A stretch of DNA of 64,000 nucleotides. It comes from Schmidtea polychroa (Eukaryota). Below, in pieces: positions 10,701 to 45,338 of this stretch. The notes beneath the pieces were generated by a model. That model searched no databases. It was not told where the DNA came from and saw only the letters and a program-made list of their open reading frames with translations. The position numbers and the translations under genes are program-made. Each line of letters starts with the position of its first letter. Positions within the stretch are counted from its first letter, which is position 1. The DNA lies in assembly GCA_044892525.1 (NCBI GenBank), contig CM097885.1:214148001-214212000 (forward strand), in the 5' to 3' direction.

Positions 10701-10702
<2 letters not shown>

Positions 10703-14592: not shown

Positions 14593-17500
14593 TGTTGGCG
14601 TATGTGGGGGAAAAAAAAATATATAGGCATGATTATCATACACATCGGGTGTCATTATTCTACTCAGATCATTCCCTCACGCACTCCAAATGATCATTCG
14701 CATATTCCCACATATGAGCCCGTGGTGATGTTCCACGTTGGTACTGCTCACACGGGTTGGGAAGAGTTAGCAGGTGAGCCCCTGCCTTAGGACTACTCCT
14801 AACCCTTTCTCGGTTCGGGTTCTACGGTGCCATAGAAGGTCTTACCCATTCTTTACGCATCATTCGGTCCGACCCTGGTCCAAAGGGTACGACATTTAAG
14901 TTTCTACTATATTTTCGTGATCCTTCTCTCATGCAATTCAACCGTAGCAAGTCATACATACAATTTACACAATCAAAGAAAAATCGAACAGTTATATTAG
15001 AACGGAACATCAAACTACATTCAATATTGTTTAAATAAATACAAAAAAACATTAAAGATTAGTCACGAGATAACGTCGCTTCTTCGAGTTCGTTAGTAAT
15101 AGCAGGGGAATCGAGACCCGAGAGAGAATTGGCTACGAGAATGCTTCTCCTTCTGCGAGCATCTCGTCGATGTCAACGGGCAACCGGCGGTCTTCAAGGA
15201 ATTTAATACTGCCGGCCGGAACTACCCGGAATACTTCCTTTGTAGGAATGGAATGGGTAACTGTAATTTCCTTGATAGTTGCTTTGGCCACAGATAACGA
15301 TGCTTCGAGCGCGGCCATGGCATTTCTACGCTTCTGATTTTTTTCAGAACGCGTCAGCCGCTTACGCTTTCGATGGGGAAATGTAGCTTCTGCTGGGGAC
15401 TGAAGGAGGTGTGGCACGAGTACTGGAGCCAAGATAGGGTCCGATGAACCGCCAGCCATAGGTCGATGGCCCGAAAGAACTGGGGCGGGAATTGGCGGCA
15501 TTTGTGGGCCATGCCCTTTACAACTGGATGTTGATGAGGTTTCAGCTAATTTGTGGTGCATTGGGAACACGTTAGTCCCATCTTGTATCGGGTACTCGCG
15601 AACTCGCTTCGCTAGTTCTGATTCGGAATACACCTTGTGCAGTGCCTCTGATTGGGCCTTTATGGTTAGCCTCTGGCACCTGCTTTCTTCCAGGAGACTG
15701 TCACGGCAGTGCTCCAAACGCAGAATCTTGCTCTTCTCCTCCTTCATTTGTGGTGGGGAGAACCACGTTCCCTCATAGAGGTCAATTCTCTTCTTCAATT
15801 CCCCGATGTACAAGTGGAGCTGTGCGATATCGGCATTTTTATCAGCACAGGAGAAGCAAGGTCTGAGGGTTTTCCCGGAACTGGTTGAGGTATTCATCTA
15901 AATCGTTAAGGAATTGTTATTTTTAAATTAAAAATTTACTGGGGTATTATTCATATTTTCGGAAAACGAAATGTAAGATTTCCCCGACCAAGTTATCCAA
16001 GAGTGGCCTACCAATCTACCCCGTCGGCAATTACCCACCTTCATACAATCTCAAACATCCAAACTAACCCATGTAATCATTACTACTTTATGAGAAGAAA
16101 ACGGGATTCATGAAAACAATTCATTATGCTAGCTTTTAGGTATACTTTTTGGGTTTGACTATCTTCAACTACTGCATGACTGTTACTTCGTTACTATGAA
16201 CGCTATTATCTTAATTATCGTTATTACATTTTAACAATTATATTTTACTCATTTTGCTGCTACGTCGTTAGATTCTACGCGTGCTATATGATGAACGGAA
16301 AATCGGCAATTACCGGGACACCCCGTCTTGTATGTAGACCCCTCGGGTTTGTAAGAAAATCATAATACCCTCGCTTAAATTGTTATCATGGATTATAATT
16401 TAGTTATTTCAATTTAACGCCATAAACATCGTCATAGTGACGCTTAAATCGGGCGCAGTTATGTGTTCATTTGCTTGTCTATCTATACCGTCAACTATCG
16501 ACGGGTTCGTTACGATGCATGTTGGTGCATTTAACTAGCGACTTGCACACTGACACAAAAAATTTCTCGTCGCATCGCCATGTTCTCTGACGCAATCCAG
16601 TGGTCTACTAGCCGATACAAGTTTACGACTCTCTCCCTATGATTAGGTAATGATGATATCCACATGTGCACTGTGACCTAATCTGAGTGTGATGCATGCG
16701 TACATGTGGGCGAGCGATTAATAGAGGTAGAGTTGTAGAGAGATGCTCTAGTTGAGACGGGTACTCAGTTGGTGTGTCCAAAACTCAAGAAATTCGATTG
16801 TGTGGGTGACTTGCGGATTCAGTAGATAAAAATTACTCTATATTCTGGATTTTCGATATTAGGTCGACTCACGATAAGACCACTCAATACACTCGATCGA
16901 CTGCCGCCTTCTCAATCAACTCGTTCGATGACTTTATCAAATTATCAGCCGATTTTCCCCGTCGGAAACTTATCTGGCCATGGGCAACTAATGATTCTCC
17001 TATCGCTATTGATATCTTCACTCGGACTCACGGCAAGTGATTTATTTCCTTATCAAAAAATTTGTTTACTTTCCCCTTTTAGACGAGCCGCTGTCAACGT
17101 CAAACCAAACTTTATCAGATATTCAATGTCAAGCTAAAGTCTAAATTAGTAAATGAATGGGTTTACTCGCTAGTGTCCCGGCAATGTACCTCTCGGGGTT
17201 CAATTTTTAAGTGCTTAGCGGATCTTCCAGTGAAAACTCTAACAATTCATCGCCCATCCCTACTCAGACATCTATCAATATTCGACGGAAAAGCAAATTT
17301 TCCTAACAACAACGAACTACTGATCTCAATCCGAAAAATTGTCTCCGACTTTGGAAATTTACATTATTTATTCTGGAACTTCAGCGTGACTTCATAAAAG
17401 AAAACGAAAGATCCTCTATCAGATCGCGCTCGATGTGAGAAATTTTACTTTCAACAGTATTCCACCTGCGGAGTCTCCTCACCCCTCATGACCCACCCAA

Positions 17501-18776
17501 GAAGGCAATCATCTCTGCCGCCGTTCTTGCATCGTCGTGAGGGACCGTTTGACTCGTCTTTCACAAAATCAACATTTAATATACAATTTATGAATAATAA
17601 AATGAATGAATGAATCAAATAGTAGCAAATGAATCAGTAAAAATAAATGGATCAATAAAGCTCACCCGGCGACCCTATCATTTGGACTCCAAGTATGATG
17701 TTATTCATTCCACACAACCGCAGCCTCATCATAACCTTGGTAGATCTCTCACATGATAAATATCCTTCTCTGCAAATATCACATCCTCATTTTCAGCATC
17801 TTCGGGATTTCTTATGAGGGTCAACCTTCCCACTGTTGTGTTCTCTGCCGTGGTACATTTCCAACTCATCCACATCATACTGGGAGCTCTCAGATGGTAC
17901 AGTCGCCGGCACCATGAAGAAAAGGCCATTTGTATTTCAATAAATTTATTTTACGAAATGAGTTTTGTCTTTCATCATTAATAAATTAACTAATACATAT
18001 AAATCAATCGGCCTACCGATAGTTTCAAAAACTGGAACGAAATCGAGTTTAAACTGGTTTCAAATTAATTGAAGGTAAATTCTGAAAATCTCTCGAATTA
18101 GCGTTTGCGATTCTAGTCCTGAATTCGGTGAAATATCTGAAGTCTATGCTCTGTAATCGTGAAAAATTAAAAGTGGTTTTAAGTTTTTCTAAAATTTACC
18201 TGTAATCGTGAAAAATTAAAAGTGGTTGTCGTCTAATTTTTCACGTTACATATATAGTATTTTTCGTCCAATCAGGACGCTACCTGCTTGTATTTTTACT
18301 ATTTATTATTATTTTTCTGTTTTTTATTATAATATATTAGATTTTTAATGACTTAACTTATTTCTTATTATTATTTTATTTATTTTCCTATTTTTATTAT
18401 TTTCCTCCTATTTTTCTTGTAGGTTTATTGCTACTTTATTGTAATATAATTTTTTTGTTTTAATTAGACTTAAAGATAGTTTTATTTTTTATTTATTTCT
18501 TAAATTTCTCTTTTATTTGTTGTCACTTTTTTACTTATTCTATTCTATTTCATCTGCTGGGTCCTAAATCGCTTTATTTCCAAATCTCAAGGGGTTTATT
18601 GGATTTTATTTAGTTTGTTTACTTATTCTTATTCTTTTATTGATATTTTATTGTTCCTTTTTGATTTATTAGCGAGAATTTGATGGTACTTTATTTTTTT
18701 ATTTTATTTCGTTTATTTTTCAAAGATTACTTTTCTATTCGCTCCAGTTTTCGAAACTCCACGTTTTAGCCCAACA
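14593..18776 (-). repeat. 3' LTR (4,184 bp)
   Basis: TGTTGG...CCAACA; direct repeat of 41155..45338 at offset 26,562. Confidence 0.97.
15133..15897 (-). CDS. LTR-encoded 254-aa protein (CxxC, coiled coil, basic NLS-like stretch), 3' LTR copy
   Basis: ATG-started ORF, identical protein in both LTRs; amino-acid-level conservation with the decayed homolog at 60381..61143. Confidence 0.75.
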   Translation of the reverse strand: MNTSTSSGKTLRPCFSCADKNADIAQLHLYIGELKKRIDLYEGTWFSPPQMKEEKSKILRLEHCRDSLLEESRCQRLTIKAQSEALHKVYSESELAKRVREYPIQDGTNVFPMHHKLAETSSTSSCKGHGPQMPPIPAPVLSGHRPMAGGSSDPILAPVLVPHLLQSPAEATFPHRKRKRLTRSEKNQKRRNAMAALEASLSVAKATIKEITVTHSIPTKEVFRVVPAGSIKFLEDRRLPVDIDEMLAEGEAFS

Positions 18777-19007
18777 AATCACTCCGGGGCCCGTTAAAAT
18801 TGCGCCCCGCAATTCACATAATATCATACGTTTAAATCATACCTTTTTTCGGCATAACAACTAATTTCACGATCATCATTCACACAAACATAAAATTAAA
18901 ATGACTAAATAATACTTTAATTAAACAGATAAAAGGACAAATATAAGCAAGCAGTGGCCACTTTAGGTGACCGGATTTATACACACAAAGTTTATGAATG
19001 GTCGATG

Positions 19008-19643
19008 TCACATGATCTCAAGGTTCGGAATGTTATTACTGTCTTGGTTGGTTGAATTCTGGGTCGGATGGCTGGTTGAAGTTGTTATCGTGGGGAGCTG
19101 GATTGTAACAGGCATTTGGTCAGGAGATAGATTTTGTTGCATTTGGTCGGGTGGGTTTGGTTGTTGAAAATGTACTGCTCGTTTATGTTTATTTTTCGGT
19201 CGTGGGTTCTTTCTTTCGTGTTTCTCGGATAGTGACTGGTTTCTTCTCCATGTTCGATGAATATCATACGCTTTCCAGATGACTAGTGCGCAGATGATAA
19301 GGGTTTCACTGATGGTAGCATAGAGTAAGACTTGATTTTCTTTTACTTCCTTCTTCACGATGATTTCCTTCAAGGATTGTTGGGTGGTTTGTTCTTGTAA
19401 GAGAATTTCGAGCTGTTCGATTTTTTGGGTTTGTAGGTGGAGTTGCATTTGAAGTTTTTGCCAGACGGCTTTGTTCCAGCATTGCTTCGGGATGTTGTTG
19501 GAGAGCTTTCTTTCGCTTTTCAGTTTGGTTAACGGGTTTTGCTGTTTCTCGGGATTCTCCCAGAATGTTGGGATTGGCTGCATCATGGGTATTCCGTTTA
19601 TCGCTATCATCATTATTGTCACCAGGGTTGTTCCGAACCACAT
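19008..19643 (-). CDS. 211-aa putative type I membrane protein
   Basis: N-terminal hydrophobic MWFGTTLVTIMMIAING, coiled coil (LQLQTQKIEQLEILLQEQ), TM VLLYATISETLIICALVIW, polar tail. Confidence 0.75.
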   Translation of the reverse strand: MWFGTTLVTIMMIAINGIPMMQPIPTFWENPEKQQNPLTKLKSERKLSNNIPKQCWNKAVWQKLQMQLHLQTQKIEQLEILLQEQTTQQSLKEIIVKKEVKENQVLLYATISETLIICALVIWKAYDIHRTWRRNQSLSEKHERKNPRPKNKHKRAVHFQQPNPPDQMQQNLSPDQMPVTIQLPTITTSTSHPTQNSTNQDSNNIPNLEIM

Positions 19644-19698
19644 ACTACTATACGAAAATTTTTATTTACAATTATTTACATTGATCATTCATCTTTAA

Positions 19699-20400
19699 TT
19701 ATTGCCGGGTTTTCTTTTTACGGGTTTTCTCGGATGTTCTCATCACTCTCGTTTCTGCTTTTATTACTCGTTTTCTCCATTCGGGTAGTACTTTTAATTG
19801 TTTGTCTTTTTCGTCTAACTGTTGCTTTAGGGTTATTATTTTTTCTTTTAGTGTTTTTATTTCTTGTGTTGCTCTTTCGAGGTTTTTATGGTTCATTATC
19901 TGTAGAAAATCATTTTCCCTTTCCCCGTCTTCTTCGTTGTCTATTTCCTGGTATTTGTTATTCATTCGTCTCATTATCTCACATTCTTTCTGTTTTCGGT
20001 GTAGTTGGAGTTGTAACTCTTTCAGGCTTTCTTGGTGTTTCCGTGCCTCGGTTTTCCAATAGTCACTAATTACTTCGTCGGCCTTTCGACTGGCCCTCTC
20101 CTGCCATAATTCTTCCGCGATCCTTTCCCAATTTCTCCCTCGCTTTCTTTGCTCGTGAAGCCATTCGTTTTCTTCCTCTACTTCTTTCTTTACTCCTTCT
20201 AACAAGATATATTCTCTTTTCAATACTTTGATCATTTTTCGATTATCTCTCCACCTTTCTACTAATCTTTCGTTTTCCTGTCTCTCTTCTTGTAATTCTT
20301 CCTTGATAGTTTTCTTCCTCTCCACTTCATCAACTTCAATTTCTCCCTCTTCTAACTCGATTATAGATGTTATGATGGGTTGTCCGTTTTCAGTGTTCAT
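19699..20400 (-). CDS. 233-aa coiled-coil protein
   Basis: Long ATG ORF, E/K/R-rich heptads, basic C-terminus; co-oriented in the element's 3' cassette. Confidence 0.8.
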   Translation of the reverse strand: MNTENGQPIITSIIELEEGEIEVDEVERKKTIKEELQEERQENERLVERWRDNRKMIKVLKREYILLEGVKKEVEEENEWLHEQRKRGRNWERIAEELWQERASRKADEVISDYWKTEARKHQESLKELQLQLHRKQKECEIMRRMNNKYQEIDNEEDGERENDFLQIMNHKNLERATQEIKTLKEKIITLKQQLDEKDKQLKVLPEWRKRVIKAETRVMRTSEKTRKKKTRQ

Positions 20401-20574
20401 TTTCTATAATATATACATAATTAATAACTGCGCTACAGTGCGGCTTATACTTATATATTTATATGTTATTTTATAATCAGGGTTACAGTCCCTTTCATAC
20501 TTTTACTGTACCATTAATTTTTTTGGTTGGGATACAGGTCCCGATTTTTATATTTTTTATCTTTCCTTTTATCC

Positions 20575-21612
20575 TTATACAAAGGTCTCTTCCTGGCCTA
20601 CATATCCCTCATCGCTTTCTACTGACGTTTGTAATTGGAGTGCGATGGGATCAAATGGGATGTAGTACCGGGGAATCTGCGCTCTAAGTTCTTGCACTTC
20701 GTCTCTTAGTGCTCTTGACACGTTAAGTTCCTCGTCCAACAGGTATGTTAGATACCTGGTTTCATCGTCTCTTACCTCTATCTGTTTTTCTAGCTCTTCC
20801 GCTTTTTCGCCGTTTTCCCATTTCTTGATCTCTATCTCCAGATTTTTAAGATTTTCGTTATACATTTTCCTTTCGTTTTCTAACTTTTTGTTTTTCCCCG
20901 CCAGTACCATATTTCTCTGCTCCAGAGCTCCTTGGTATCCGTTGACATCTCGTTCTAGTTCTGCGACCTTATTTACCAGTTCCACGAGTCGTCCTGACTG
21001 TTGAAGTATCAGTTCTTCCATTGCGGCATTCTCGTGCTCCCTTATGGAGATTTTCATGGCTAGATGTCTTTCAAATTCCATGGCTTTGGTCTGCCATGTT
21101 TGGCTTCGGGCCGCAATCTTTCTGAGCCGTTTCAGTTCTTCTCTTATGACCAGATTTTCCTCCCATTTGCCTTGTTCGCTTTCGTATTCTAATCTCATAG
21201 GCAATTCTTTCATTTCTTTTTTCATCTCTTTGTTCTGCCGCTTCCAGTTTCGGGCTTCTGCCAATAGGTGATTCATTTTCCTTCCTTCCTTTTGTTTTTC
21301 TGCTTCTCGTTTTGTGTTTTCGTCCGTCAATCGTTTCCGTGCTTCCTGCACTAACTGTTTTAAATAGTGGCTGTGTGCTTCTTGGCGAGTGTTTTCCAAT
21401 GATGCCCACTTAGAGGCTCTTTTGCATGCTTCTGCTTCGGCTCTTAAATTGTTTATTAACCACTGATATTTGTTATTCTCGTATTCCCTGGCCTCTTCGA
21501 GATGGTTGTGGGTCTGGTTCGTCAATTGTAACATTACTTTGACCCATTTTCCCTTATGGATTTTATTGACTTTGGTTTCGTGGTTTGGGGCTTCAGTTCC
21601 TTCTTGTGTCAT
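20575..21612 (-). CDS. 345-aa coiled-coil protein
   Basis: Long ATG ORF, almost entirely predicted helical coiled coil. Confidence 0.82.
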   Translation of the reverse strand: MTQEGTEAPNHETKVNKIHKGKWVKVMLQLTNQTHNHLEEAREYENNKYQWLINNLRAEAEACKRASKWASLENTRQEAHSHYLKQLVQEARKRLTDENTKREAEKQKEGRKMNHLLAEARNWKRQNKEMKKEMKELPMRLEYESEQGKWEENLVIREELKRLRKIAARSQTWQTKAMEFERHLAMKISIREHENAAMEELILQQSGRLVELVNKVAELERDVNGYQGALEQRNMVLAGKNKKLENERKMYNENLKNLEIEIKKWENGEKAEELEKQIEVRDDETRYLTYLLDEELNVSRALRDEVQELRAQIPRYYIPFDPIALQLQTSVESDEGYVGQEETFV

Positions 21613-21831
21613 CCTTGTCTAAATAACGATATCATTAACTTAACGTTGTACGCTTATATCTGGTTTATTATTTATTTATTTTTATAATTCGTTATAGGAG
21701 TTGTTTTAGGAGTTTTTCGCTTAAGTTTACCTTTGGTAGATTTGGGGGGAATTTGCTACACTACTATATAATATTTTACTGGATATATACGCCGATATTT
21801 ACAATTAGTATATACAAAATTATTCGTCTCC

Positions 21832-23220
21832 CTACTCAGTCCTACTCTTCCCATCACGCCTCACCGCTATTTTTATGTATATAGTGTCGTTTCTCGTCAT
21901 GTCTTCTACTTTCCGCTGTAGGATGAAATTTGGTGCTCCAGTTGCTGGTCCTTCTTCTTCCAAGGGCCTTTGGTAACATACGAGGTTTCCCGCTGTATGG
22001 AAACTCTGTTCGTGTATACTTTGATAGTTCATCATTGCAAGGTCTATTTTTGCTTTGAATGGCCATTCTATTAACTCGTCGTATGGCCCTTTGCACATCA
22101 AGAAGAATACTGAGAAATGCGTTCCGTATGCACTTCCATCCCCATTGGGGTATGCTTTCATTTTCATTTTATACCCGTTTTTCCATGAGTAGAATGCTGG
22201 ACTTAGTAATGTTGTATCCTTTCCATTTCTCGCTCTCTGCATCTTCTCTTTTATTCCCGTTATTTTCCATATGTACGGAGCCGTTGGTATTAATTCGTTG
22301 AGGTTTAATTCGCTTACTTTTTGATGTAGTTCTTTCACCATAATATTGCTAGTTTCTACTAGATCTGTCTGTATCTTTGTACTTGTTCTCGCCTCTTCAA
22401 ATGCTTCCTTTTCTTCCAATAGTTCTTTTACCAACGCTTTTAGCGAGACTATTTCTCTTTCTAAGTTTTCGGTTTTCCTTTCGTTTTCCTGTACAACCGT
22501 TGACCATATTTCCGCGTGTGTTGATACGTTTTCTGCTAGGTGTTGGGGTAATTCTCCTCGGTGTAATTGTTTCGGACATCCCCATTTTCCTAGCACACAC
22601 GTTATCTTTTTTCTTTCACACTCTTTTAGATGTTGAGCGAGTTTTATTACTCCGGGTTTATCGCATTTGTTGGGACATTCTCCTCTGAATTCTGCGCACA
22701 CTTTCTCCTCTTGTATGTTGTGATGTTGACTGATTAGTTTCTTCCAGGTGTCGTTTTCTCCGCAATACTCGCATTTCTCTAGTCTTTCTTCGCATCGACT
22801 TTGATGTTCTGCTTCTTCATTGACTTTAATCTCTTCTTGGCAACGTTTGCATTGACTGATTTTATACTCACATTGCTCCGTATGTTGCCTCACTTCCCAT
22901 ATCACTCCTCGCCAATTACATGGGGTGTTTTTACATCCTAGGTTTGCATTCAACATATCTTTTACAGCTGCTTTATCTTCGTTTGTATCTCCCAAACTTG
23001 TTATCATTGTTTCTTTGCATACTGGGCACCATTGTGGTCCCTTCTTTATTATCTCCTCTACACATTCTCTGCACATTCTGCATCCACATCTGGTTTGGTG
23101 AGGTTCTCTTAATAAGCTCTTGCATATTCCACACGTTACATGGTTGTGTATTCGAATTGTGGTGGACTTTCTGATTTGTTCAACAATTTCTCTGAATTCT
23201 TCTCGTTGTCGCTTATCCAT
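21832..23220 (-). CDS. TRAF-family protein (RING, TRAF zinc fingers, coiled coil, MATH), intronless, 462 aa
   Basis: RING CGIC...CGCRMCREC...CPVC; TRAF Zn fingers (C..NTPCNW...H...C); MATH motifs YIWKI, SPAFYS..NGYKMKMKAYPNGDG..GTHFSVF, GPYDELIEWPF. Confidence 0.95.
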   Translation of the reverse strand: MDKRQREEFREIVEQIRKSTTIRIHNHVTCGICKSLLREPHQTRCGCRMCRECVEEIIKKGPQWCPVCKETMITSLGDTNEDKAAVKDMLNANLGCKNTPCNWRGVIWEVRQHTEQCEYKISQCKRCQEEIKVNEEAEHQSRCEERLEKCEYCGENDTWKKLISQHHNIQEEKVCAEFRGECPNKCDKPGVIKLAQHLKECERKKITCVLGKWGCPKQLHRGELPQHLAENVSTHAEIWSTVVQENERKTENLEREIVSLKALVKELLEEKEAFEEARTSTKIQTDLVETSNIMVKELHQKVSELNLNELIPTAPYIWKITGIKEKMQRARNGKDTTLLSPAFYSWKNGYKMKMKAYPNGDGSAYGTHFSVFFLMCKGPYDELIEWPFKAKIDLAMMNYQSIHEQSFHTAGNLVCYQRPLEEEGPATGAPNFILQRKVEDMTRNDTIYIKIAVRRDGKSRTE

Positions 23221-23309
23221 TTCTATAATTATATATATACATATATTCGTTACTGGTACAGTTTCGTATTTTTATTTACATTTATTTACATTGCTATTTT
23301 AGGTTATAT

Positions 23310-23669
23310 TTATTGGCTGGAAGAGTCGGCCTCCTGTCCGCCCTCTTCCCTGTTGGTTAACCATTCTGACCAGTCTTCTATCTCCTCTCGCTCCATCTCT
23401 TCCGCGATTCTTATTAACTCCTCTTCTTGCACCTGGCTGTATCGTGATATTCGGTCTATCTCTCGCTGCATTTGTTCTATTTTCATTCGTTGGTCTTCGA
23501 TTATTCTTACATAATTGAAGCCTTTATTTAAACTTTCGACTAAGCTTCTTTGTACAGCGAGTCCTTGTTCCTGTAAATTCGAAATCACTTGAGTTAACAT
23601 TGCACATTGTTGTTTCCACATCTCCTCGGTTGTTGTACTGTGGTTTACTTCCTCGCCTATTCGCTCCAT
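23310..23669 (-). CDS. ~119-aa coiled-coil acidic protein (ORF track begins at a TTG at 23693; first ATG at 23669)
   Basis: Co-oriented ORF between the polyprotein and TRAF; heptad pattern. Confidence 0.65.
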   Translation of the reverse strand: MERIGEEVNHSTTTEEMWKQQCAMLTQVISNLQEQGLAVQRSLVESLNKGFNYVRIIEDQRMKIEQMQREIDRISRYSQVQEEELIRIAEEMEREEIEDWSEWLTNREEGGQEADSSSQ

Positions 23670-23837
23670 TCTTAATTTATATATACTTTTCAATCCTTAT
23701 CTAATTTTATTTTCATATTAATTATCCCCATCATTATATACTATTGATACCGCGCTTATATAAAAATATAGAATACTGTTATATAAATAAATATTTCCTA
23801 CTTACTTTTTACAATCTATATACAGTCATAATCCTTT

Positions 23838-26800
23838 CTATATACGTGAGCTTGGAGGGCGCTGAGCATTCCAGGCCTCCACCCACTGTTCCTGCTTGAT
23901 ATTACTTGGTCGTTTTACACGATGTTGAAAATTTCTTATTCTGGCCATTTCTAGTTCTCCGTGATGCCGTCTATCTTTGATTATTTTTATTGTCCCCCCC
24001 GTTATGATTAAAAAGGCCCCTGTTATTATTATGCCGCTGATCCACATCATCTGTTTTATGCTTATAATTTCCGCTTTTTCCTTGCTCGTTATTGTTGATA
24101 TTGCTTCTGTGCTTTTTAGATTACCGTCTTTGCCATTTCCTTTCATCATTCCTCGTATTCTTGCTATTTCCTCGTTCATACCTTCCTTTGCCATTTTTTG
24201 TATTTTCTCCATCTCCTCCTCGGATACATAATTGTCTTGATGTTTCTCACTGTTTTTCTTGCGTTTTCCTTGCTCATCTTTTTCATCATCGATTTTTCTT
24301 TTCTTTCCTCTTTTCCCAGGGTATCGTCGACATTCTCTCGCTGTATCTTTTCTCCAGATGCATATTGTGTATTCTTTTGGAGGTTGTTGCTGTATTACAT
24401 ATTGTAGACAGTCTTCACCCGGTCTTAATCTTGCGATGCAGACTTTGTGTTCTTTTCTTGGCTGGAGTTGCGTTATCACTACCTCACCTCCTTTTCCCAG
24501 GTGTACCTCCTTCCCTTTGACTTTCGTTATTCTCTTCCCTTCTCGATTTCGGTATGCTTCTTGTATTCTTACTTCCGTTATTGGTTCTGCATCTTCATTT
24601 TTTAACACTAGTCTCTGATAAGCTCTAGACATACATCTTCCTAATATACACCTTTCTTTTAAATCCCATTCTTCTTTTAGATCCCATTGCTGCTCTTGTA
24701 CTTGTTTTTTCTTTTCTTGTTTTAGTTCTTCCTCTTTGTTGTCCTTATTTTCCGTTTCTTTGGCTTCTTTTATCGTTCTCATTCCTCCCTGGGCTGTTAT
24801 CATTTCCACCATTGTTAGTACGAGTATCATTATCATCATATTTGTCTCCATTTCTTTGTTGGTAAAAAGTAGGCATACCCTCTGTTTTCCACTATTCGTC
24901 TTTTCTTCTTGCTTCATTCGGTTTCTCGGGTTATTTTCCTCTTTTTTCCTACTCGCGTCGTTATTTTCTTGATTATTCTCCTCTGATTTCTCTTTCTCTT
25001 TATTCCCGTTTCGACCTTTTTCATTATTATCGTCGTCTTTATCGTCTTTATCGTCTTTATCTCCCCCGCTATCGTTTAAAATGTCGTCCTCGACATTTAT
25101 ATCATTCAACAATCTGCGGTATGCCGTTAGCACTCTGTTTCTTGCTAATTTTGCTTCGAGTTCGAACTCCTTTCTGCCTGTTGCTACATGTCTCTTTCTA
25201 TTCCATTCTTTCACTAATTCTCTTAATTGTATCCGACGATGTTTCCCGATTCGCTTTTGTTCGTTTAGATTCTGCGTGAATTTGAGATCTTCCCTGTTTA
25301 ATACGATCATTATGATTTTCGGAGTTCCTCCTTTTGTTAGTGTATTTTTAACCATAGCATTTTCTCCGTTTTCGTAGAACTCATTTATGTTTATTGCATA
25401 TTTATTGCTTTGTGGTATTCTCCATGTTAGCAGCAACTTCATGGCTTCTAAGTTCATCCGTATCGTGTTCCATTGGAACTGTGACGTGTTTTTACAGATA
25501 TTTTCTGCCTCAGTTCTTGTAGCATTTTTACAAATGAATCTAATCATTTCCAAGTTTGGTTGTATTGTTGCCCAATCCATGGTAGAATTTCCTTCGTTTG
25601 ATATTTCGTCAAGTCTCGAACCTGATTGATGTAGTATATGTAATGTTTTCGGGTGTATATTTGTTATGGCTGCATACATCATTGCTGTTTCCCCTTGTTC
25701 ATTTTTTGCATTAGATTCTTCTCCGAAGTCTCTAAGGATTCTTATGATGGTTATTGCTCTGTTCTCTTTTGCTGCTAAAATGGCTTGTTGTAATGGTGTT
25801 CTTGAGTCTTTTGTTGGTAAGGTGAATGCTAGTGGTATAAATGTTTTTATTTTTCCTATGTCTAGATTTGTGGTCTGATCTCTTGCGTAGGTGTGTACTG
25901 TCTTGGTTATTTTTGCTAGTATCGCTTCATCGGATAGATCTTGCATTTCTTCAAAGAATACTTCTTTAGCCTTACGTACTACTATCTCTTGGTCGGAGTT
26001 TATTGTCTTTGGTTTACTTGTTGTTGCTATATCGGTTATTGGTTGCTCGACTTGTTCCTCAGACTTTCTTGTTTTTACTTTCTTCATTTTTATCTTTTTC
26101 TTGTTCGAACTGTTAATGCGTTCCTCTGCCGTTAGAACTTGAATAATACTTAGGTAGTTTTCTCGAATGTTGTTCATAGTTTCCATCATATGTAAAACAC
26201 TCACGGTGTCCCAAAATTTTACTTGTACTTTATCGGTAAATTGAGATATAGCTTTTTCGAAGTTGGTAATTCGTTTTCTGATTAGTTGTTCGTCTTTGTG
26301 ATTTGAGAATTTTATGCCTCGTTGTAGTAGTTGATTTGGAATTTCGAATAGGTGATGTCCTCTCATTGCTTCTCTCATCAAGGTATTTTCTCCTTTGGTA
26401 AATGTTTCGTTTATATCCACCATATAATCGTTTTTTATCGGGTTCCTCCATGCAATTAGTATTCCAGTAATTGTTGTTAATTTCTCTTTGATTGCAGTAA
26501 ATAGCCCGTCATACATGTTTCCTATCTCTCTATTATCCTCGTATGATATTAGATCTACTAAGATTATGAAGGCTTCCGTACTTTTCCCTTCGATTGCATG
26601 ATGTAATGCATTTTTCTGGTTGTGATCTTGTGTGGTTATCCTTGACCCAGTTTCAAGTAATGCGATGATAATATCTTTAGCTTTATCCCGATTGGCTGCT
26701 ATCATTAGTGGGGTGTAACCTTGGTTGTTTTCTTGATCTGTCGAAATGTTACAATCGCGAAATGCTTCAATTGTTTCTAATATCTGTTCGTTACTACCCA

Positions 26801-35800: not shown

Positions 35801-38273
35801 TTCTTTCTAGTTTCATTATCTTTTGTATGAAGCGTCGGTATGGTATGATGTCAATGAATTCCTGGTTTCTTACCACCACTGGAAGTATTTCCTTTACTTG
35901 TTTTATCGCTTCTTCTCTTTCTTTTCTCAATTTCATTTCGATATTCTCGTCTTCGCTTTCGCTTGTCACGTCGCTTTCTCTTTCATCTTCATCTGCTCCA
36001 ATCTTTTCTCTTAGTTGGTCGATATTTTCATTTAACTGTAACATTTCTCCACCAAGGCTACTCACATAATCCTCATCGTCATCTGTTGACAACACCTTCT
36101 TTGTTGTCCTCATCATATTAATTCGTAAATTTCTCATTCTTGGTACTTTCTTTAACTTGTTGTTCTCGAGTATCGTTAGTTCCTCTGAGTCTAATTCTCG
36201 TATCATATTATGCTTTAGATGATTAATCTGTTTTTCATTTTCGTTATTTTCTGCTTCTGCTTCTGTTTTTGTTTGCTCATTTTCTCTTTCGATTTTATCT
36301 TTTATCTTTTTCCAAAATATTTTCTGAATTCTCTGATTTCCTTTTAGTGGTGTTGTTGAATTTTCCTTTTTTGCTGCTGTAATTGTTTCTTTCGGTTTCT
36401 CTGGTTCGCTCATAGGTACAACTCTTGGATTTTTACCGTAATTGTAACAATATTGCTCCTTTATCTCCTTTACCATCCTCATCATATTTATTCGTAGTGG
36501 TTGTTCTTGTCGCTGCTGAATTCGCTCTCTTTTTATCCTTTCTTCTTCAGCTTGTAGTCTTTGCCATTCTTGTGCATGTTGTTGCACTTCATAATTGTTA
36601 AGATTCTCGGTGCTTCTCATCATGCGTATATTCTGGGTTGGTTGTGGTACTTGCTCTTGTCTCGGTCTCATCATTTGTTGCATCATCTGCTTCATTTGTG
36701 AAATTTCTTGCATCACATTCATTTGCTTTCCCTCACTAGGATTACTTTGTCGTTGCGGATTTGGTGCATAGTTATTATTTCGCTGTGGTGGTCGTTGCTG
36801 TTGGCTCCTTTCTCGACAGTCTCTTGAGATATGACCTAGTTGCCCGCAGTTAAAACATCCTCTTGATTGGCATATATTTTCCGTGTGTCCTCGTCGTCCA
36901 CACCTATTGCAATTTGCGTTTCGGTAACAATCTCTATCCCAATGTCCTGGTTTACCGCATGTTCGGCATTGTTTGTTATCGTTTATATTTCGTCGATTAT
37001 TAAAGTTGTTCCCATTGTTTGAGTTGTTGCGTTCACTGTTATTCCCGTTTGATCGTCCTTGTGGTGGTTTGAAAATTTGATGCGCACCTGGTATAAACTG
37101 ATTCATCTTTGGTTCATGATTATTGTTATCTCCATTTTCCGTTTTCACCGCTGCTGTTGCGATTCTTCCCTCCTCTTGCATGACGTTCATTTGTGCTGGG
37201 AGGTGTAGTTCGCATCTTGTGGCCCAATCTATGGCTTCTTCTAGTGTTTTACACATTTGACATCCCACCGAGGCCCTTACCTCTTCTCGGCGTAGTCCTT
37301 CTATGAAGTAACCCATTAAATTTTCCTCCGGCAAGTTTCCGTTCATGGCCTTCTTTGCCAATCTTCGCAATTCACTTGCGTATAACGTAATTGACTCGTT
37401 TGCTCTTTGTTTTCTACTTGCCAGTTCACCTAACGCTTGATTTATTGGTTTGCTGGCTCCGAATGTTTTTCTCAAAAATGTTTTGATGTTTTCCCAATTG
37501 TCTAATTTCGTATTTCTTTCTTTTGCTTCCAGATATACTTCGAGTGCGCTATCGCACAAAAACAGAGGCATTCGTTTACTAATTGCTTCGGGTGTCCATC
37601 CACACACATCGATATAGACTTCAAAGTTGGTTATGAACGTTGCCAACTTGTTCGCATTCCCGTTGAATGGTTCGCCTCTAAATTTTTCCTTATACTCGTC
37701 AGTTTTTACCACATTCATCTTAATTGGTTCTTGAAACTCTATTATTTCTTTTAAATTTTCCAGCGATGTAGCTAAGCTATGGACGGATAATTCTTCTGTT
37801 GACCCGGTTAGGTTGTTGGTTATATCGGATAGACTTTCTCTACTTCTAGATCGGCTGGGCGTATGTCCGGCTGTGGGGTTTTCTTGATCGTATATCGGTG
37901 TTTTGTGGGGTCTTTTTGCTCCTTGTGATATTCCTCTCTGCTGCCTAAATGATCGTCCTCTTTTGAGTTGATCTAATTCGTCTCCTGAAAATAATACGTC
38001 TCCTGGCTTACTTGAAGATCTAAGGTTGGGTTTATCCGTGATTTTCCTTTTACTCTTTTCTGTCTTTTCACGTGGATTTTCTACGGTTAGCGTCTGCTGA
38101 ATTGGTCGAGTTCGGTTTTGATATTGTCTTCCTTTGTGCGGGTTCTGAATTGCTTTTCCTGGGTTGTTTGTATATTCTCTGGATTCCTCTTGAGCTGGTT
38201 CTGAATTGACTTGGTTGGATGGATGTCTACAATGAAAATATGATATCGTGTTGCCTTTGCTTACACGAATCAA
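23838..38273 (-). CDS. Single Gag-Ubl-Bcl2-Env-PR-RT-RH-IN-Ank-TM polyprotein (4,811 open codons; first in-frame ATG at 37718)
   Basis: 14.4-kb frame with no stop; recognisable CCHC, DTG, YIDD, TDAS, HHCC, D-D-E, GPY and ankyrin motifs. Confidence 0.97.
   Translation of the reverse strand: [4811 protein letters not shown]
25540..26845 (-). other. Two clusters of ankyrin repeats (within polyprotein)
   Basis: [67 protein letters not shown]. Confidence 0.88.
27130..28420 (-). other. Integrase (HHCC, DDE, GPY/F) (within polyprotein)
   Basis: YHDGRLGGH...CITC; MDVVGPL...TDQGTNF...ERFNGTL; GPYEI. Confidence 0.97.
28480..29720 (-). other. Reverse transcriptase and RNase H (within polyprotein)
   Basis: RPYKL, [76 protein letters not shown]. 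Confidence 0.98.
30190..30555 (-). other. Aspartic protease (within polyprotein)
   Basis: [23 protein letters not shown] ... CIIGTDLM. Confidence 0.95.
31020..32918 (-). other. Env-like glycoprotein (chuvirus G / gB-type class III fusogen): signal peptide, ~550-aa ectodomain, TM (within polyprotein)
   Basis: Hydrophobic [18 protein letters not shown] then FTIYDC; 14 ectodomain Cys; [53 protein letters not shown]. Confidence 0.8.
33040..33440 (-). other. Bcl-2-like domain (within polyprotein)
   Basis: [16 protein letters not shown] resembles BH2 (HLEPWIQENGGWDTFV) with Bcl-2-like helix spacing upstream; BH1 NWGR is not retained. Confidence 0.55.
34050..35725 (-). other. Three ubiquitin-like domains (~35500-35725, ~34945-35205, ~34050-34260; within polyprotein)
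   Basis: Best copy [46 protein letters not shown] aligns by eye to ubiquitin [44 protein letters not shown]. Confidence 0.6.
36815..37718 (-). other. Gag capsid-like domain plus three CCHC zinc knuckles (within polyprotein)
   Basis: [16 protein letters not shown]...Q..[18 protein letters not shown]...FIEGL; [42 protein letters not shown]. Confidence 0.92.
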
Positions 38274-38939
38274 TCATTCCTTTTTGCCACATTCAAGCAC
38301 AGACACCGTTTTAGGGCCTCTGTTATATTTTTCTTCATTTCCCCTCATACACTTCTTCGCAGAATATAATTACCCATCAACCCATATTTTTCGTCGATTT
38401 TAAATTATCTATTTGGGGTAGTAACAATTATCTATATAGTCGTATAAATTATCTATAGTTAGCATTTATAATATCGATAGGTCGTTGTCAGTTACTGCCT
38501 ATTACCTCCCATATTTTCTTAATCCTTTTACGCGGTTCCGCTATTTTACTTAATCTTTCATCTCTGTTTCCCCTTATTTGGTTCTACTCTGTAACCAAAA
38601 CAAAATTCGTTTAACCGGTTTAAACCAAAAAAATTCTGTAGAACTTTGTCTACTTGTCTGGGATCCCTTTTTTAATTAATTAATCACCTTCCTCTTTTAC
38701 TCATCACTTATTCTTTATTTTCATTATCTCTTTAATTCATTTTCCTTTTCCGTTTCTCTTTCCCACTGAAAAAAATTTCATTATTACTTCTCACGAGCTC
38801 GTTTAATCCTTTCTAAATTCAAATACCATATTTCAAACTCACTTTGCTTCTAGCTAGCTTTAATATTCCATCTCACTAGTAATTTAAATGTTATCAACTT
38901 GTAGCTTGAATGCTATCTCACTATTACTTTAGGCCTTTA

Positions 38940-39615
38940 CGACTGGCTGGCACTTTTCAACAGCTCAATCTTCTTCTCCTGACCGGTTGGACTATTCAAC
39001 AACTCGATCTTACGACTGGCTGGCACTATTCAACAGCTCAATCTTCTTCATCTCCGAACTGGCTGGACTTTTCACAGCTCAGTTTTAATTTTTCCTGACC
39101 GGCTGGACTTTTCAACAGCTCGGCCTTAATATCTCCGACTGGCTGGACTTTTCACAGCTCAGTTTTAATTTTTCCTGACCGGCTGGACTTTTCAACAGCT
39201 CGGCCTTAATATCTCCGACTGGCTGGACTTTTCACAGCTCAGTTTTAATTTTTCCTGACCGGCTGGACTTTTCAACAGCTCGGCCTTAATATCTCCGACT
39301 GGCTGGACTTTTCACAGCTCAGTTTTAATTTTTCCTGACCGGCTGGACTTTTCAACAGCTCGGCCTTAATATCTCCGACTGGCTGGACTTTTCACAGCTC
39401 AGTTTTAATTTTTCCTGACCGGCTGGACTTTTCAACAGCTCGGCCTTAATATCTCCGACTGGCTGGACTTTTCACAGCTCAGTTTTAATTTTTCCTGACC
39501 GGCTGGACTTTTCAACAGCTCGGCCTTAATATCTCCGACTGGCTGGACTTTTCACAGCTCAGTTTTAATTTTTCCTGACCGGCTGGACTTTTCAACAGCT
39601 CGGCCTTAATATCTC
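38940..39615. repeat. Tandem array in the element leader: about 7 perfect 80-bp units (two alternating 40-bp subunits, 39061-39615) plus 3 degenerate subunits
   Basis: GGCTGGACTTTTCACAGCTCAGTTTTAATTTTTCCTGACC alternating with GGCTGGACTTTTCAACAGCTCGGCCTTAATATCTCCGACT. Confidence 0.97.
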
Positions 39616-40197: not shown

Positions 40198-40677
40198 CTA
40201 ACTGAAGTAGATTGTGTGCTTCTCTTTTATTACACATGTGCACATAGAACACCGGATTAAACTGGCGGCGCATTCGTCACAATGGCTAAGGTGCCCACAA
40301 GGTAGAATCAGAATTTTGACAGGTCGCATCTTGCAAATGTTACAAGTTCTCAAGGCCGCTGCTTTCTCTACTATTGATGTTCGTATCCGCTGAGACAGAG
40401 TTTTGACTCGTTCGCGTATCCTCACATATTCGATGTTCAGCGCTGGGTCGTCGAGACGTTGCTGAAACCATTGGTAATGAATCGACAAGTCGGTATCGGT
40501 ATTCGTTGATCCTAATCTGTCGGTTAGAAAGTTTTGTTTGGATATCAGCGGTGCGTCGTGGCTTTGTTGTTCTAGCAGTTCTATTTGTTTCAGTTTTTCC
40601 CTTAATGTTTTTATTGAATCATTTTCTATTTCGACGAACCGGCTTAGCTGTTGTAGATGTTGTCTAGCGTCTGACAT
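40198..40677 (-). CDS. 159-aa coiled-coil plus IAP-type C-terminal RING protein (no BIR)
   Basis: CNICKMRPVKILILPCGHLSHCDECAASLIRCSMCTCVIKEKHTIYFS*; RING at the extreme C-terminus ending in an aromatic tail as in IAPs. Confidence 0.88.
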   Translation of the reverse strand: MSDARQHLQQLSRFVEIENDSIKTLREKLKQIELLEQQSHDAPLISKQNFLTDRLGSTNTDTDLSIHYQWFQQRLDDPALNIEYVRIRERVKTLSQRIRTSIVEKAAALRTCNICKMRPVKILILPCGHLSHCDECAASLIRCSMCTCVIKEKHTIYFS

Positions 40678-41129: not shown

Positions 41130-41147
41130 ATCCCGGCTGAGCCCCCA
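41130..41147 (-). promoter_or_regulatory. Primer-binding site, tRNA-Pro type, 7 nt inside the 5' LTR end
   Basis: Minus strand TGGGGGCTCAGCCGGGAT; 16/18 identical to the MLV tRNA-Pro PBS TGGGGGCTCGTCCGGGAT. Confidence 0.88.
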
Positions 41148-41694
41148 AAAATCGTGTTGGCGTATGTGGGGGAAAAAAAAATATATAGGCATGATTATCA
41201 TACACATCGGGTGTCATTATTCTACTCAGATCATTCCCTCACGCACTCCAAATGATCATTCGCATATTCCCACATATGAGCCCGTGGTGATGTTCCACGT
41301 TGGTACTGCTCACACGGGTTGGGAAGAGTTAGCAGGTGAGCCCCTGCCTTAGGACTACTCCTAACCCTTTCTCGGTTCGGGTTCTACGGTGCCATAGAAG
41401 GTCTTACCCATTCTTTACGCATCATTCGGTCCGACCCTGGTCCAAAGGGTACGACATTTAAGTTTCTACTATATTTTCGTGATCCTTCTCTCATGCAATT
41501 CAACCGTAGCAAGTCATACATACAATTTACACAATCAAAGAAAAATCGAACAGTTATATTAGAACGGAACATCAAACTACATTCAATATTGTTTAAATAA
41601 ATACAAAAAAACATTAAAGATTAGTCACGAGATAACGTCGCTTCTTCGAGTTCGTTAGTAATAGCAGGGGAATCGAGACCCGAGAGAGAATTGG

Positions 41695-42459
41695 CTACGA
41701 GAATGCTTCTCCTTCTGCGAGCATCTCGTCGATGTCAACGGGCAACCGGCGGTCTTCGAGGAATTTAATACTGCCGGCCGGAACTACCCGGAATACTTCC
41801 TTTGTAGGAATGGAATGGGTAACTGTAATTTCCTTGATAGTTGCTTTGGCCACAGATAACGATGCTTCGAGCGCGGCCATGGCATTTCTACGCTTCTGAT
41901 TTTTTTCAGAACGCGTCAGCCGCTTACGCTTTCGATGGGGAAATGTAGCTTCTGCTGGGGACTGAAGGAGGTGTGGCACGAGTACTGGAGCCAAGATAGG
42001 GTCCGATGAACCGCCAGCCATAGGTCGATGGCCCGAAAGAACTGGGGCGGGAATTGGCGGCATTTGTGGGCCATGCCCTTTACAACTGGATGTTGATGAG
42101 GTTTCAGCTAATTTGTGGTGCATTGGGAACACGTTAGTCCCATCTTGTATCGGGTACTCGCGAACTCGCTTCGCTAGTTCTGATTCGGAATACACCTTGT
42201 GCAGTGCCTCTGATTGGGCCTTTATGGTTAGCCTCTGGCACCTGCTTTCTTCCAGGAGACTGTCACGGCAGTGCTCCAAACGCAGAATCTTGCTCTTCTC
42301 CTCCTTCATTTGTGGTGGGGAGAACCACGTTCCCTCATAGAGGTCAATTCTCTTCTTCAATTCCCCGATGTACAAGTGGAGCTGTGCGATATCGGCATTT
42401 TTATCAGCACAGGAGAAGCAAGGTCTGAGGGTTTTCCCGGAACTGGTTGAGGTATTCAT
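41695..42459 (-). CDS. LTR-encoded 254-aa protein, 5' LTR copy
   Basis: Same protein as 15133..15897; one synonymous substitution noticed (15196 A vs 41758 G). Confidence 0.75.
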   Translation of the reverse strand: MNTSTSSGKTLRPCFSCADKNADIAQLHLYIGELKKRIDLYEGTWFSPPQMKEEKSKILRLEHCRDSLLEESRCQRLTIKAQSEALHKVYSESELAKRVREYPIQDGTNVFPMHHKLAETSSTSSCKGHGPQMPPIPAPVLSGHRPMAGGSSDPILAPVLVPHLLQSPAEATFPHRKRKRLTRSEKNQKRRNAMAALEASLSVAKATIKEITVTHSIPTKEVFRVVPAGSIKFLEDRRLPVDIDEMLAEGEAFS

Positions 42460-44811
42460 CTAAATCGTTAAGGAATTGTTATTTTTAAATTAAAAATTTA
42501 CTGGGGTATTATTCATATTTTCGGAAAACGAAATGTAAGATTTCCCCGACCAAGTTATCCAAGAGTGGCCTACCAATCTACCCCGTCGGCAATTACCCAC
42601 CTTCATACAATCTCAAACATCCAAACTAACCCATGTAATCATTACTACTTTATGAGAAGAAAACGGGATTCATGAAAACAATTCATTATGCTAGCTTTTA
42701 GGTATACTTTTTGGGTTTGACTATCTTCAACTACTGCATGACTGTTACTTCGTTACTATGAACGCTATTATCTTAATTATCGTTATTACATTTTAACAAT
42801 TATATTTTACTCATTTTGCTGCTACGTCGTTAGATTCTACGCGTGCTATATGATGAACGGAAAATCGGCAATTACCGGGACACCCCGTCTTGTATGTAGA
42901 CCCCTCGGGTTTGTAAGAAAATCATAATACCCTCGCTTAAATTGTTATCATGGATTATAATTTAGTTATTTCAATTTAACGCCATAAACATCGTCATAGT
43001 GACGCTTAAATCGGGCGCAGTTATGTGTTCATTTGCTTGTCTATCTATACCGTCAACTATCGACGGGTTCGTTACGATGCATGTTGGTGCATTTAACTAG
43101 CGACTTGCACACTGACACAAAAAATTTCTCGTCGCATCGCCATGTTCTCTGACGCAATCCAGTGGTCTACTAGCCGATACAAGTTTACGACTCTCTCCCT
43201 ATGATTAGGTAATGATGATATCCACATGTGCACTGTGACCTAATCTGAGTGTGATGCATGCGTACATGTGGGCGAGCGATTAATAGAGGTAGAGTTGTAG
43301 AGAGATGCTCTAGTTGAGACGGGTACTCAGTTGGTGTGTCCAAAACTCAAGAAATTCGATTGTGTGGGTGACTTGCGGATTCAGTAGATAAAAATTACTC
43401 TATATTCTGGATTTTCGATATTAGGTCGACTCACGATAAGACCACTCAATACACTCGATCGACTGCCGCCTTCTCAATCAACTCGTTCGATGACTTTATC
43501 AAATTATCAGCCGATTTTCCCCGTCGGAAACTTATCTGGCCATGGGCAACTAATGATTCTCCTATCGCTATTGATATCTTCACTCGGACTCACGGCAAGT
43601 GATTTATTTCCTTATCAAAAAATTTGTTTACTTTCCCCTTTTAGACGAGCCGCTGTCAACGTCAAACCAAACTTTATCAGATATTCAATGTCAAGCTAAA
43701 GTCTAAATTAGTAAATGAATGGGTTTACTCGCTAGTGTCCCGGCAATGTACCTCTCGGGGTTCAATTTTTAAGTGCTTAGCGGATCTTCCAGTGAAAACT
43801 CTAACAATTCATCGCCCATCCCTACTCAGACATCTATCAATATTCGACGGAAAAGCAAATTTTCCTAACAACAACGAACTACTGATCTCAATCCGAAAAA
43901 TTGTCTCCGACTTTGGAAATTTACATTATTTATTCTGGAACTTCAGCGTGACTTCATAAAAGAAAACGAAAGATCCTCTATCAGATCGCGCTCGATGTGA
44001 GAAATTTTACTTTCAACAGTATTCCACCTGCGGAGTCTCCTCACCCCTCATGACCCACCCAAGAAGGCAATCATCTCTGCCGCCGTTCTTGCATCGTCGT
44101 GAGGGACCGTTTGACTCGTCTTTCACAAAATCAACATTTAATATACAATTTATGAATAATAAAATGAATGAATGAATCAAATAGTAGCAAATGAATCAGT
44201 AAAAATAAATGGATCAATAAAGCTCACCCGGCGACCCTATCATTTGGACTCCAAGTATGATGTTATTCATTCCACACAACCGCAGCCTCATCATAACCTT
44301 GGTAGATCTCTCACATGATAAATATCCTTCTCTGCAAATATCACATCCTCATTTTCAGCATCTTCGGGATTTCTTATGAGGGTCAACCTTCCCACTGTTG
44401 TGTTCTCTGCCGTGGTACATTTCCAACTCATCCACATCATACTGGGAGCTCTCAGATGGTACAGTCGCCGGCACCATGAAGAAAAGGCCATTTGTATTTC
44501 AATAAATTTATTTTACGAAATGAGTTTTGTCTTTCATCATTAATAAATTAACTAATACATATAAATCAATCGGCCTACCGATAGTTTCAAAAACTGGAAC
44601 GAAATCGAGTTTAAACTGGTTTCAAATTAATTGAAGGTAAATTCTGAAAATCTCTCGAATTAGCGTTTGCGATTCTAGTCCTGAATTCGGTGAAATATCT
44701 GAAGTCTATGCTCTGTAATCGTGAAAAATTAAAAGTGGTTTTAAGTTTTTCTAAAATTTACCTGTAATCGTGAAAAATTAAAAGTGGTTGTCGTCTAATT
44801 TTTCACGTTAC

Positions 44812-44834
44812 ATATATAGTATTTTTCGTCCAAT
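44812..44834 (-). promoter_or_regulatory. Putative LTR core promoter (ATTGG/CCAAT box plus TATA); copy at 18250..18272
   Basis: CCTGATTGGACGAAAAATACTATATAT; same blocks conserved in the diverged LTR at 57422..57458 (CCTGATTGGA...GACGAAAATACTATAAAT). Confidence 0.6.
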
Positions 44835-45338
44835 CAGGACGCTACCTGCTTGTATTTTTACTATTTATTATTATTTTTCTGTTTTTTATTATAATATATT
44901 AGATTTTTAATGACTTAACTTATTTCTTATTATTATTTTATTTATTTTCCTATTTTTATTATTTTCCTCCTATTTTTCTTGTAGGTTTATTGCTACTTTA
45001 TTGTAATATAATTTTTTTGTTTTAATTAGACTTAAAGATAGTTTTATTTTTTATTTATTTCTTAAATTTCTCTTTTATTTGTTGTCACTTTTTTACTTAT
45101 TCTATTCTATTTCATCTGCTGGGTCCTAAATCGCTTTATTTCCAAATCTCAAGGGGTTTATTGGATTTTATTTAGTTTGTTTACTTATTCTTATTCTTTT
45201 ATTGATATTTTATTGTTCCTTTTTGATTTATTAGCGAGAATTTGATGGTACTTTATTTTTTTATTTTATTTCGTTTATTTTTCAAAGATTACTTTTCTAT
45301 TCGCTCCAGTTTTCGAAACTCCACGTTTTAGCCCAACA

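Follow-up and report, generated by a model that had tools for sequence, protein, structure and literature searches.

A young Burro-type Ty3/gypsy element of Schmidtea polychroa with a predicted class III envelope under purifying selection

Why a retroelement should hold an envelope glycoprotein inside its polyprotein, and whether that envelope takes it from one cell to another, is the question raised by a stretch of 64,000 nucleotides from Schmidtea polychroa (assembly GCA_044892525.1, contig CM097885.1, positions 214,148,001 to 214,212,000; hereafter the window). Positions 14593-45338 of the window are occupied by a long terminal repeat (LTR) element of 30,746 bp on the minus strand, read from 45338 to 14593, which is a new family of the Burro or flatworm GAG-ENV-POL kind of Ty3/gypsy elements; it is neither a new kind of element nor a member of Retroviridae. 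We consider it probable that this is a young, intact copy whose class III envelope (Env), kept under strong purifying selection, lets it replicate via enveloped particles that pass between host cells. Such infectivity is plausible from sequence comparison, and the purifying selection on Env lends it real support. By analogy, the element would most likely work like gypsy of Drosophila, except that its envelope belongs to class III and not to class I.

Structure and age of the element

A single pair of direct repeats, spaced 26,562 bp apart, is found in the window, and these are the 5' LTR (41155-45338) and the 3' LTR (14593-18776); both, like all features of the element located below, lie on the minus strand. 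Each LTR is 4,184 bp long, starts with TGTTGG and ends with CCAACA (TG...CA), and the two differ by one mismatch, at 15196. The strandless 4-bp target site duplication (TSD), TTGG, flanks the element at 14589-14592 and 45339-45342; lengths of 5 or 6 bp were also tried at these flanks and neither fits. Seven nucleotides from the 5' LTR lies a primer-binding site (PBS; 41130-41147) that agrees at 18 of 18 nucleotides with the 3' end plus CCA of the host tRNA-Pro, whose genes were located in the genome as called by ARAGORN. Direct TG...CA LTRs, a TSD and a tRNA PBS are the marks of a Ty3/gypsy element. A canonical polypurine tract before the 3' LTR is absent, the nearest run of at least eight purines sitting 74 nt upstream; such a tract beside the 3' LTR is usual in Ty3/gypsy elements, not universal. 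Thus the intact 30.7-kb element of the initial annotation is borne out by its length, near-identical LTRs, TSD and PBS, while the statement that all cis parts are present holds for LTRs, TSD and PBS and fails for the polypurine tract. The element is free of N, the only runs of N in the window (2765-2935 and 56010-56213) lying outside it; its G+C content is about 0.39 vs 0.29, its sense strand is strongly A-skewed, and its leader contains an 80-bp tandem array (38937-39615) whose copy number differs between elements. The tRNA-Pro(TGG) genes stand in a long array with 475-bp spacing (C1:130.90-130.95 Mb), and the 3' end of the arrayed gene has 2,382 genome-wide matches at no more than one mismatch.

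The claimed 14.4-kb frame is indeed a single stop-free frame of 4,811 codons (23838-38273) that encompasses Gag, cargo, Env, protease (PR), reverse transcriptase (RT), RNase H (RH), integrase (IN), ankyrins and a C-terminal membrane module; its first ATG, at 37718, would give 4,626 aa. Pfam orders the domains as retrotrans_gag, CCHC knuckles, Monjiviricetes fusion glycoprotein, protease, RT, RNase H, integrase and ankyrins. Gag (36813-37568) joins retrotrans_gag to three CCHC knuckles, the aspartic protease (30252-30527) has a DTGA motif, RT with its YIDD motif and RNase H (28536-29588) are recognized by Pfam and motifs, and the integrase (27696-28214) shows HHCC and core. This PR-RT-RH-IN order with its catalytic motifs is that of Ty3/gypsy, and in the similarity ranking by which RT was placed, RT-RH is nearest to Ty3 among solved structures (E 3e-90), the next entry following at 2e-58 and retroviral RTs at 1e-35. 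An early description as Ty3/gypsy, enveloped and cargo-laden is therefore supported by the Pfam domains, the Env fold and the RT similarity to Ty3, whereas the label of retrovirus fits only in a broad sense: the RT resembles that of Ty3, and the element has neither an RT of retroviral type nor, behind pol, a class I Env such as Retroviridae carry. All eight open reading frames (ORFs) that had been called undisrupted are open, seven being internal and one lying in each LTR. A short motif of the I-N-M-M type occurs 11 times by one pattern in 23838-37718, mostly at domain borders.

Searching the genome with RT gave 40 scored places at 98-100% among 928 candidates. The LTR start is present 96 times, which by hand count makes 38 pairs, one triple and 17 singles, or about 39 two-LTR loci. 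Copies were sampled as the best 25 of the 39 other RT places, and one locus without a detectable LTR motif (C1:139954456) was left out. Of the 25, 24 possess a TSD of 4 bp and two LTRs that differ by 0-2 substitutions, and two of these also have a deletion in one LTR; the remaining copy has a truncated 3' LTR. The stop-free frame is kept over at least 4,736 aa in 19 of the 25. Examination of 12 single LTR starts identified 10 solo LTRs with a 4-bp TSD and two without an end in the examined stretch. The copies show that the family underwent a very recent burst. Two LTR types (4.18 and 4.24 kb) are 97% alike over their first 400 bp and about 55-75% inside, and both sit on an internal region that is 98-99% identical. 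Such diverged LTRs on a near-identical body point to recombination between co-packaged genomes. Sister families in the same genome share 82-97% protein identity for most ORFs, and one locus reaches 94-97% over the polyprotein.

The envelope and a second membrane protein

Env (31014-32927) carries a membrane anchor at 31184-31128 and matches PF24664 (E 7e-72), the family of class III fusion glycoproteins of the chuvirus G and herpesvirus gB-like type. An AlphaFold model built from 114 sequences reached a pLDDT of 87.7, and Foldseek aligned it with a chuvirus glycoprotein (E 1.5e-39, TM 0.64) and with herpesvirus gB (E 7e-14). Because the model matches both chuvirus glycoproteins and herpesvirus gB, Env is, by its predicted fold, a class III fusogen. 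Its ectodomain and anchor lie between gag and pol, as in gB-type GAG-ENV-POL elements. Word-based search returned no relatives of Env alone; a HMMER search of representatives with Env returned 1,026 relatives at E 0.001. When 17 relatives were scanned, 12 proved to combine Env and Gag, protease or Pol domains in a single chain, three were stand-alone glycoproteins of about 660-685 aa and two were longer chains showing the Env domain only. Across 114 relatives, stand-alone glycoproteins included, 24 positions of Env are nearly invariant, and 16 of these are cysteines.

The recent copies allow one to ask which parts of the polyprotein tolerate change. Codon variants were tallied column by column over 26 copies, a variant being shared when at least two copies carry it. 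Shared variants, as synonymous to replacement, number 46:0 in Env, 23:2 in RT-RH, 15:1 in IN, 33:18 in the N-terminal cargo and 27:19 in the ankyrins. The absence of replacements in Env has a p of 9e-26 after allowing for transition bias and holds at a kappa of 4.6. Env is more constrained than the N-terminal cargo and the ankyrins of the same polyprotein (Fisher 2e-6 and 4e-7) and does not differ from PR, RT and IN together (p 0.24). Comparison with two sister families tells the same: omega is 0.023 and 0.050 for Env, comparable to RT and IN, 0.15-0.38 for the cargo and 0.03 for a Bcl-2-like segment. Accessory ORFs lean synonymous as well (omega 0.14-0.25), o119 and o345 without significance. 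A shared ORF accounts for missing stops and not for missing replacements, so the protein sequence of Env matters to replication. The need for Env can thereby be argued at the population level from this young family, and we infer that the constraint on Env would mean infection.

Env may not be the only surface protein made from this frame. At its end (23841-24866) a second type I membrane protein is predicted, with a signal-like segment (24839), a beta-rich ectodomain and an anchor (24047). Signal and anchor are about 260 aa apart, and such a C-terminal pair is present in five of five distant relatives. The module is the least constrained part of the polyprotein (omega 0.36-0.38), and one may hypothesize that this low constraint fits a receptor-facing role. 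A motif L-x-P/G-x-T, which we take to be a fibronectin-III signature, is present in four of the five relatives, the window having a looser LQPRK. A profile of five ectodomain pieces, which rests on four relatives because the piece from the window aligned out of register, gave four sub-threshold matches against PDB (E 0.27-1.6) that are fibronectin-III-type regions judging by their names. Within the module Pfam fn3 gave no match, word-based search found no relatives, and a single-sequence model was poor (pLDDT 47) and had no fold match.

Accessory genes, expression signals and priming junctions

The cargo is spread over the polyprotein and the seven accessory ORFs. Upstream of the long frame an ORF of 159 aa (40198-40677) encodes an IAP-type RING (PF13920 E 3e-8; cIAP/XIAP RING E 1e-9) with a coiled coil. 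Within the polyprotein lie ankyrin repeats identified by Pfam (25632-26777) and a weak Bcl-2-like segment (32994-33578; PF00452 E 0.038, under the curated cut-off) in the same position as in published Burro. Downstream follow a helical ORF of 119 aa without a reliable family (23310-23669), a full-length TRAF with RING, TRAF zinc fingers, coiled coil and MATH in a separate ORF of 462 aa (21832-23220), two charged, likely coiled-coil ORFs of 345 aa (20575-21612) and 233 aa (19699-20400) without Pfam match, and an ORF of 211 aa (19008-19643) with a hydrophobic N-terminus and one membrane segment. The LTR itself harbors an ORF of 254 aa (41695-42459, second copy 15133-15897) that has no Pfam match and an AG immediately before its ATG; it is present in both LTR types (72% identical, omega 0.18). 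No BIR or dUTPase was matched by Pfam in the element proteins, the single signal of a ubiquitin fold is a weak PI3K_rbd match (E 0.056), and the N-terminal cargo found no match among PDB sequences. Contigs of runs X1 and X3 join 19682 to 23298 and so skip in one piece the TRAF ORF and those of 345 and 233 aa, which suggests a cargo-poor variant, not located in the genome.

Taken together, the signals around these ORFs lead us to infer that a short leader exon from the LTR may be spliced to each of them and that the polyprotein would start at an ACG codon. A predicted promoter and first exon (44755-44836) comprise an inverted CCAAT, a TATA (44818), a short leader and a CAG/GTAAA donor (exon end 44762). 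Order and spacing of CCAAT, TATA and donor are common to LTR types A and B and to two otherwise diverged sister-family LTRs; the arrangement was not found in a fourth relative nor in a family encoding only Gag that is described below. An acceptor-like AG stands within 6 nt before the ATG in all seven accessory ORFs vs 77 of 606 other ATGs, or 13 of 70 when this background is restricted to ATGs with AT-rich upstream sequence. For the polyprotein, a predicted acceptor (38227-38240) followed by an ATG-free stretch down to the ACG is kept in the three copies examined and in two sister-family copies. The predicted ACG start (38037-38039), with A at -3 and G at +4, is codon 79 of the frame, precedes the first ATG by 107 codons and is kept in 26 of 26 copies and both of two sister-family copies. 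Protein conservation begins at this ACG, stops and indels being found upstream of it, and the pre-ATG part is under selection in its own frame (11:7 vs 0:17 and 4:14). Initiation at the ACG is predicted to give a polyprotein of 4,733 aa. The Gag-only family has 117 open codons ahead of its ATG, without a matching ACG. Two copies show a 51-nt loss beside the LTR donor that splicing and recombination between 28-bp repeats fit equally, and it was not used as evidence.

How might plus strands be primed? In place of a polypurine tract, the 3' junction (18777-18814) consists of a 7-bp hairpin and CCGGAGTGATT, and both are found in all complete copies, in the sister families and in the Gag-only family, the hairpin stem being constant and its loop variable. 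The 19-nt junction before the 3' LTR has 544 exact genomic matches, and the 10 junction loci sampled on C1 belong to the Gag-only family (seven), to sister families (two) and to a more distant relative (one). Because the Gag-only family keeps the junction and the hairpin stem, the 3' junction is a conserved cis signal and probably where plus strands begin, without being a purine tract. A second tRNA-binding site in this place was considered and rejected, a tRNA-like pattern having no genomic match. TGATT is found both after the 5' LTR (CGATT in the window copy, 41148-41154) and before the 3' LTR (18777-18781), and its presence beside both LTRs is a trait of the family that the sister families and the Gag-only family share.

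The Gag-only family was recognized at C1:5742719 and six more loci. Its LTRs measure about 1.55-1.65 kb, pol and env are missing, and the elements span 13.5-15.9 kb with a 4-bp TSD in the six that were measured; at one locus, units of 13.55 kb are repeated in tandem. Where intact, its Gag has 760 aa and is about 30% identical to that of the window element, to which the family is otherwise similar only at the PBS junction (31 bp, 97%) and the 3' junction (53 bp, 94%). It is likely an abundant, non-autonomous satellite.

Infection, its alternatives and known relatives

In the account we favour, a promoter near LTR position 520 would give an RNA with a short first exon that splicing joins to the acceptor before each ORF, and translation of the polyprotein would start at the ACG. 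Internal signal and anchor segments would insert Env and the second, C-terminal protein in the membrane, with Gag and Pol left in the cytosol, and the protease would release the individual domains. The TRAF, IAP-RING, Bcl-2-like and ankyrin cargo may damp death and immune signalling, enveloped particles would carry the element between cells of a flatworm-like host, and the integrase would leave the 4-bp TSD. Several points weigh against this account. The copies were picked by similarity and the sample thus favours intact ones, and one copy without Gag and half of Env still shows near-identical LTRs and a TSD. A single carrier set, the split of two sublineages, is common to 21 of the 46 shared variants in Env, so that the count reflects selection since that split and not 46 independent recent events. 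The signal-like segment of Env in the window is Met-rich and stays under both hydrophobicity thresholds, its equivalent passing in five of five distant relatives. The AG-before-ATG pattern was chosen after inspecting the sequences, is matched by the polyprotein's own ATG too and, in relatives, is missing at two of 11 ORF starts; transcription, splicing and initiation at the ACG are predictions from sequence comparison.

It is possible, if rather doubtful, that the element transposes only within the stem or germ cell that transcribes it, and that Env is kept for folding or routing of the shared polyprotein or for budding at inner membranes rather than for infection. With Env in frame between Gag and Pol, stops and frameshifts would be purged for Pol's sake alone, no particles are reported in the literature searched, and the Gag-only family spreads well without an Env of its own, although its enzymes have to come from other elements and an Env could come from them too. 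However, other domains of the same polyprotein accept replacements (omega 0.15-0.38) where Env does not (0-0.05), and the near-invariance of the Env positions, cysteines above all, extends to stand-alone glycoproteins. We regard it as improbable that the locus is the provirus of a virus also moving between animals or species, its young copies representing repeated germline invasions from outside. Such invasions would agree with the full intact gene set and the low share of solo LTRs, with two LTR types on a near-identical body, which imply recombination of co-packaged genomes, and with run X2, which bears a second organism label, contains 73% of the words and covers the stretch. Yet that label is coded and from the same study as the other runs, so that X2 may be a sister taxon or a mislabel; the stepwise range of sister families within this genome fits long residence, and co-divergence of env, pol and host has been argued (PMC13524379). 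An origin of the locus in misassembly or repeat collapse is scarcely credible: near-identical 4-kb repeats can mislead assemblers, but each of the 24 other copies has flanks and a 4-bp TSD that are distinct, which refutes this reading, and two independent runs cover all 30 bins of a 20-kb stretch.

A more elaborate scenario, in our view unlikely as a whole, extends passage between cells to a two-part entry in which a gB-like fusogen acts with a fibronectin-III-like attachment partner cut from the polyprotein end. Eight genes would be expressed via a spliced LTR leader and an ACG start, plus strands would be made without a polypurine tract, a more numerous Gag-only satellite would keep only the two priming junctions, and Burro elements would be active complex viruses of flatworms. 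PMC13524379 leaves open how gB-type envelopes of Ty3/gypsy elements bring about entry in the absence of herpesviral partner proteins.

The architecture as such is already known. Burro elements of S. mediterranea and D. tigrina are described as exceeding 30 kb, with an ORF of 4,873 or 5,140 aa that holds Gag, TRAF, Bcl-2-like, an in-frame Env between gag and pol and ankyrins, plus accessory ORFs, and were proposed as proviruses in 2019 (PMC6431247). The initial annotation had made novelty depend on this architecture not being annotated before; comparison with the published Burro domain annotations finds the same architecture in print (PMC6431247, PMC13524379), in-frame env, cargo and provirus idea included, and novelty is refuted. 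Its caution that the size class may not be new was justified, the class being published for Burro (PMC6431247) and mentioned in PMC11410931. Going by their published descriptions, Burro 1-4 / GYPSM1 and the D. tigrina element resemble the window element in length (over 30 kb), a polyprotein of about 4,800 aa, accessory ORFs and tandem repeats, and Burro shares with it Gag, three CCHC, a Bcl-2-like segment, in-frame Env, PR-RT-RH-IN, ankyrins and TRAF cargo. Indeed, the window element exceeds 30 kb with multi-kb LTRs, its polyprotein with in-frame Env falls in the range of about 4,800-5,100 aa, and in its cargo TRAF and ankyrins are strong and Bcl-2 is weak. TRAF is a separate ORF downstream of pol in the window, as opposed to inside ORF1 in the account of Burro1 and in an upstream ORF in that of D. 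tigrina. Burro is credited with a BIR, for which the window had no match, having an IAP-type RING ORF instead, and the ubiquitin-like and dUTPase-like motifs published for Burro via HHpred were not confirmed by Pfam in the window. Env is class III by predicted fold in the window, whereas PMC6431247 tied Burro Env to gypsy Env, noting mononegavirus matches. BURRO1 RNA on smedwi-2 RNAi has been assigned to differentiated, intestine-enriched cells (PMC8532177).

Six GAG-ENV-POL elements with gB-type Env are reported from S. mediterranea, with coding spans of 14.5-18 kb and 1-215 copies (PMC13524379). Smed_errantivirus_1-6 share with the window element a Ty3/gypsy Pol, a gB-type Env between gag and pol and many near-identical copies (PMC13524379), but it is unlike each of them, the closest by eye being Smed_errantivirus_5 at about 58% over about 130 aa (hand count). 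PMC13524379 gives no tRNA for these six, and its main text does not contain 'purifying', 'accessory' or 'splic'. Errantiviruses of the Drosophila gypsy type are Ty3/gypsy elements whose envelope allows germline infection by particles coming from somatic cells (PMC13524379). Their Env is F-type and encoded in a separate ORF after pol, in contrast to the class III Env predicted within the polyprotein here. The genome of Drosophila gypsy is also much smaller and without large cargo. Chuvirus and xinmovirus glycoproteins belong to the same Pfam family and share the predicted fold with Env at 17-20% identity. Chuvirus-type glycoproteins occur in mosquito BEL/Pao elements as well (PMC13524379); unlike in these carriers, the glycoprotein in the window is fused into a Ty3/gypsy polyprotein. 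For Burro, selection on Env, an expression model, a second membrane protein and a satellite were not found in the literature searched, a search outside which subscription papers, Repbase reports and the Grohme supplement lay. It is these four that make infectivity testable, and exact places for tests can be named in the donor at 44762, the acceptors, the ACG at 38039 and the candidate second surface protein. If infectivity is real, a 30-kb enveloped retroelement moves DNA between cells of an animal with lifelong pluripotent stem cells.

Outside the element, a GCM DNA-binding domain (PF03615 E 1e-46) at 4062-5142, with a proline/serine-rich frame downstream, likely marks a host glial-cells-missing gene. 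A short Bcl-2-like frame (E 5e-4) adjoins an AAT microsatellite at 10351-10701, and a fragment of another LTR element at 8-553 retains an integrase zinc finger (E 2.5e-10).

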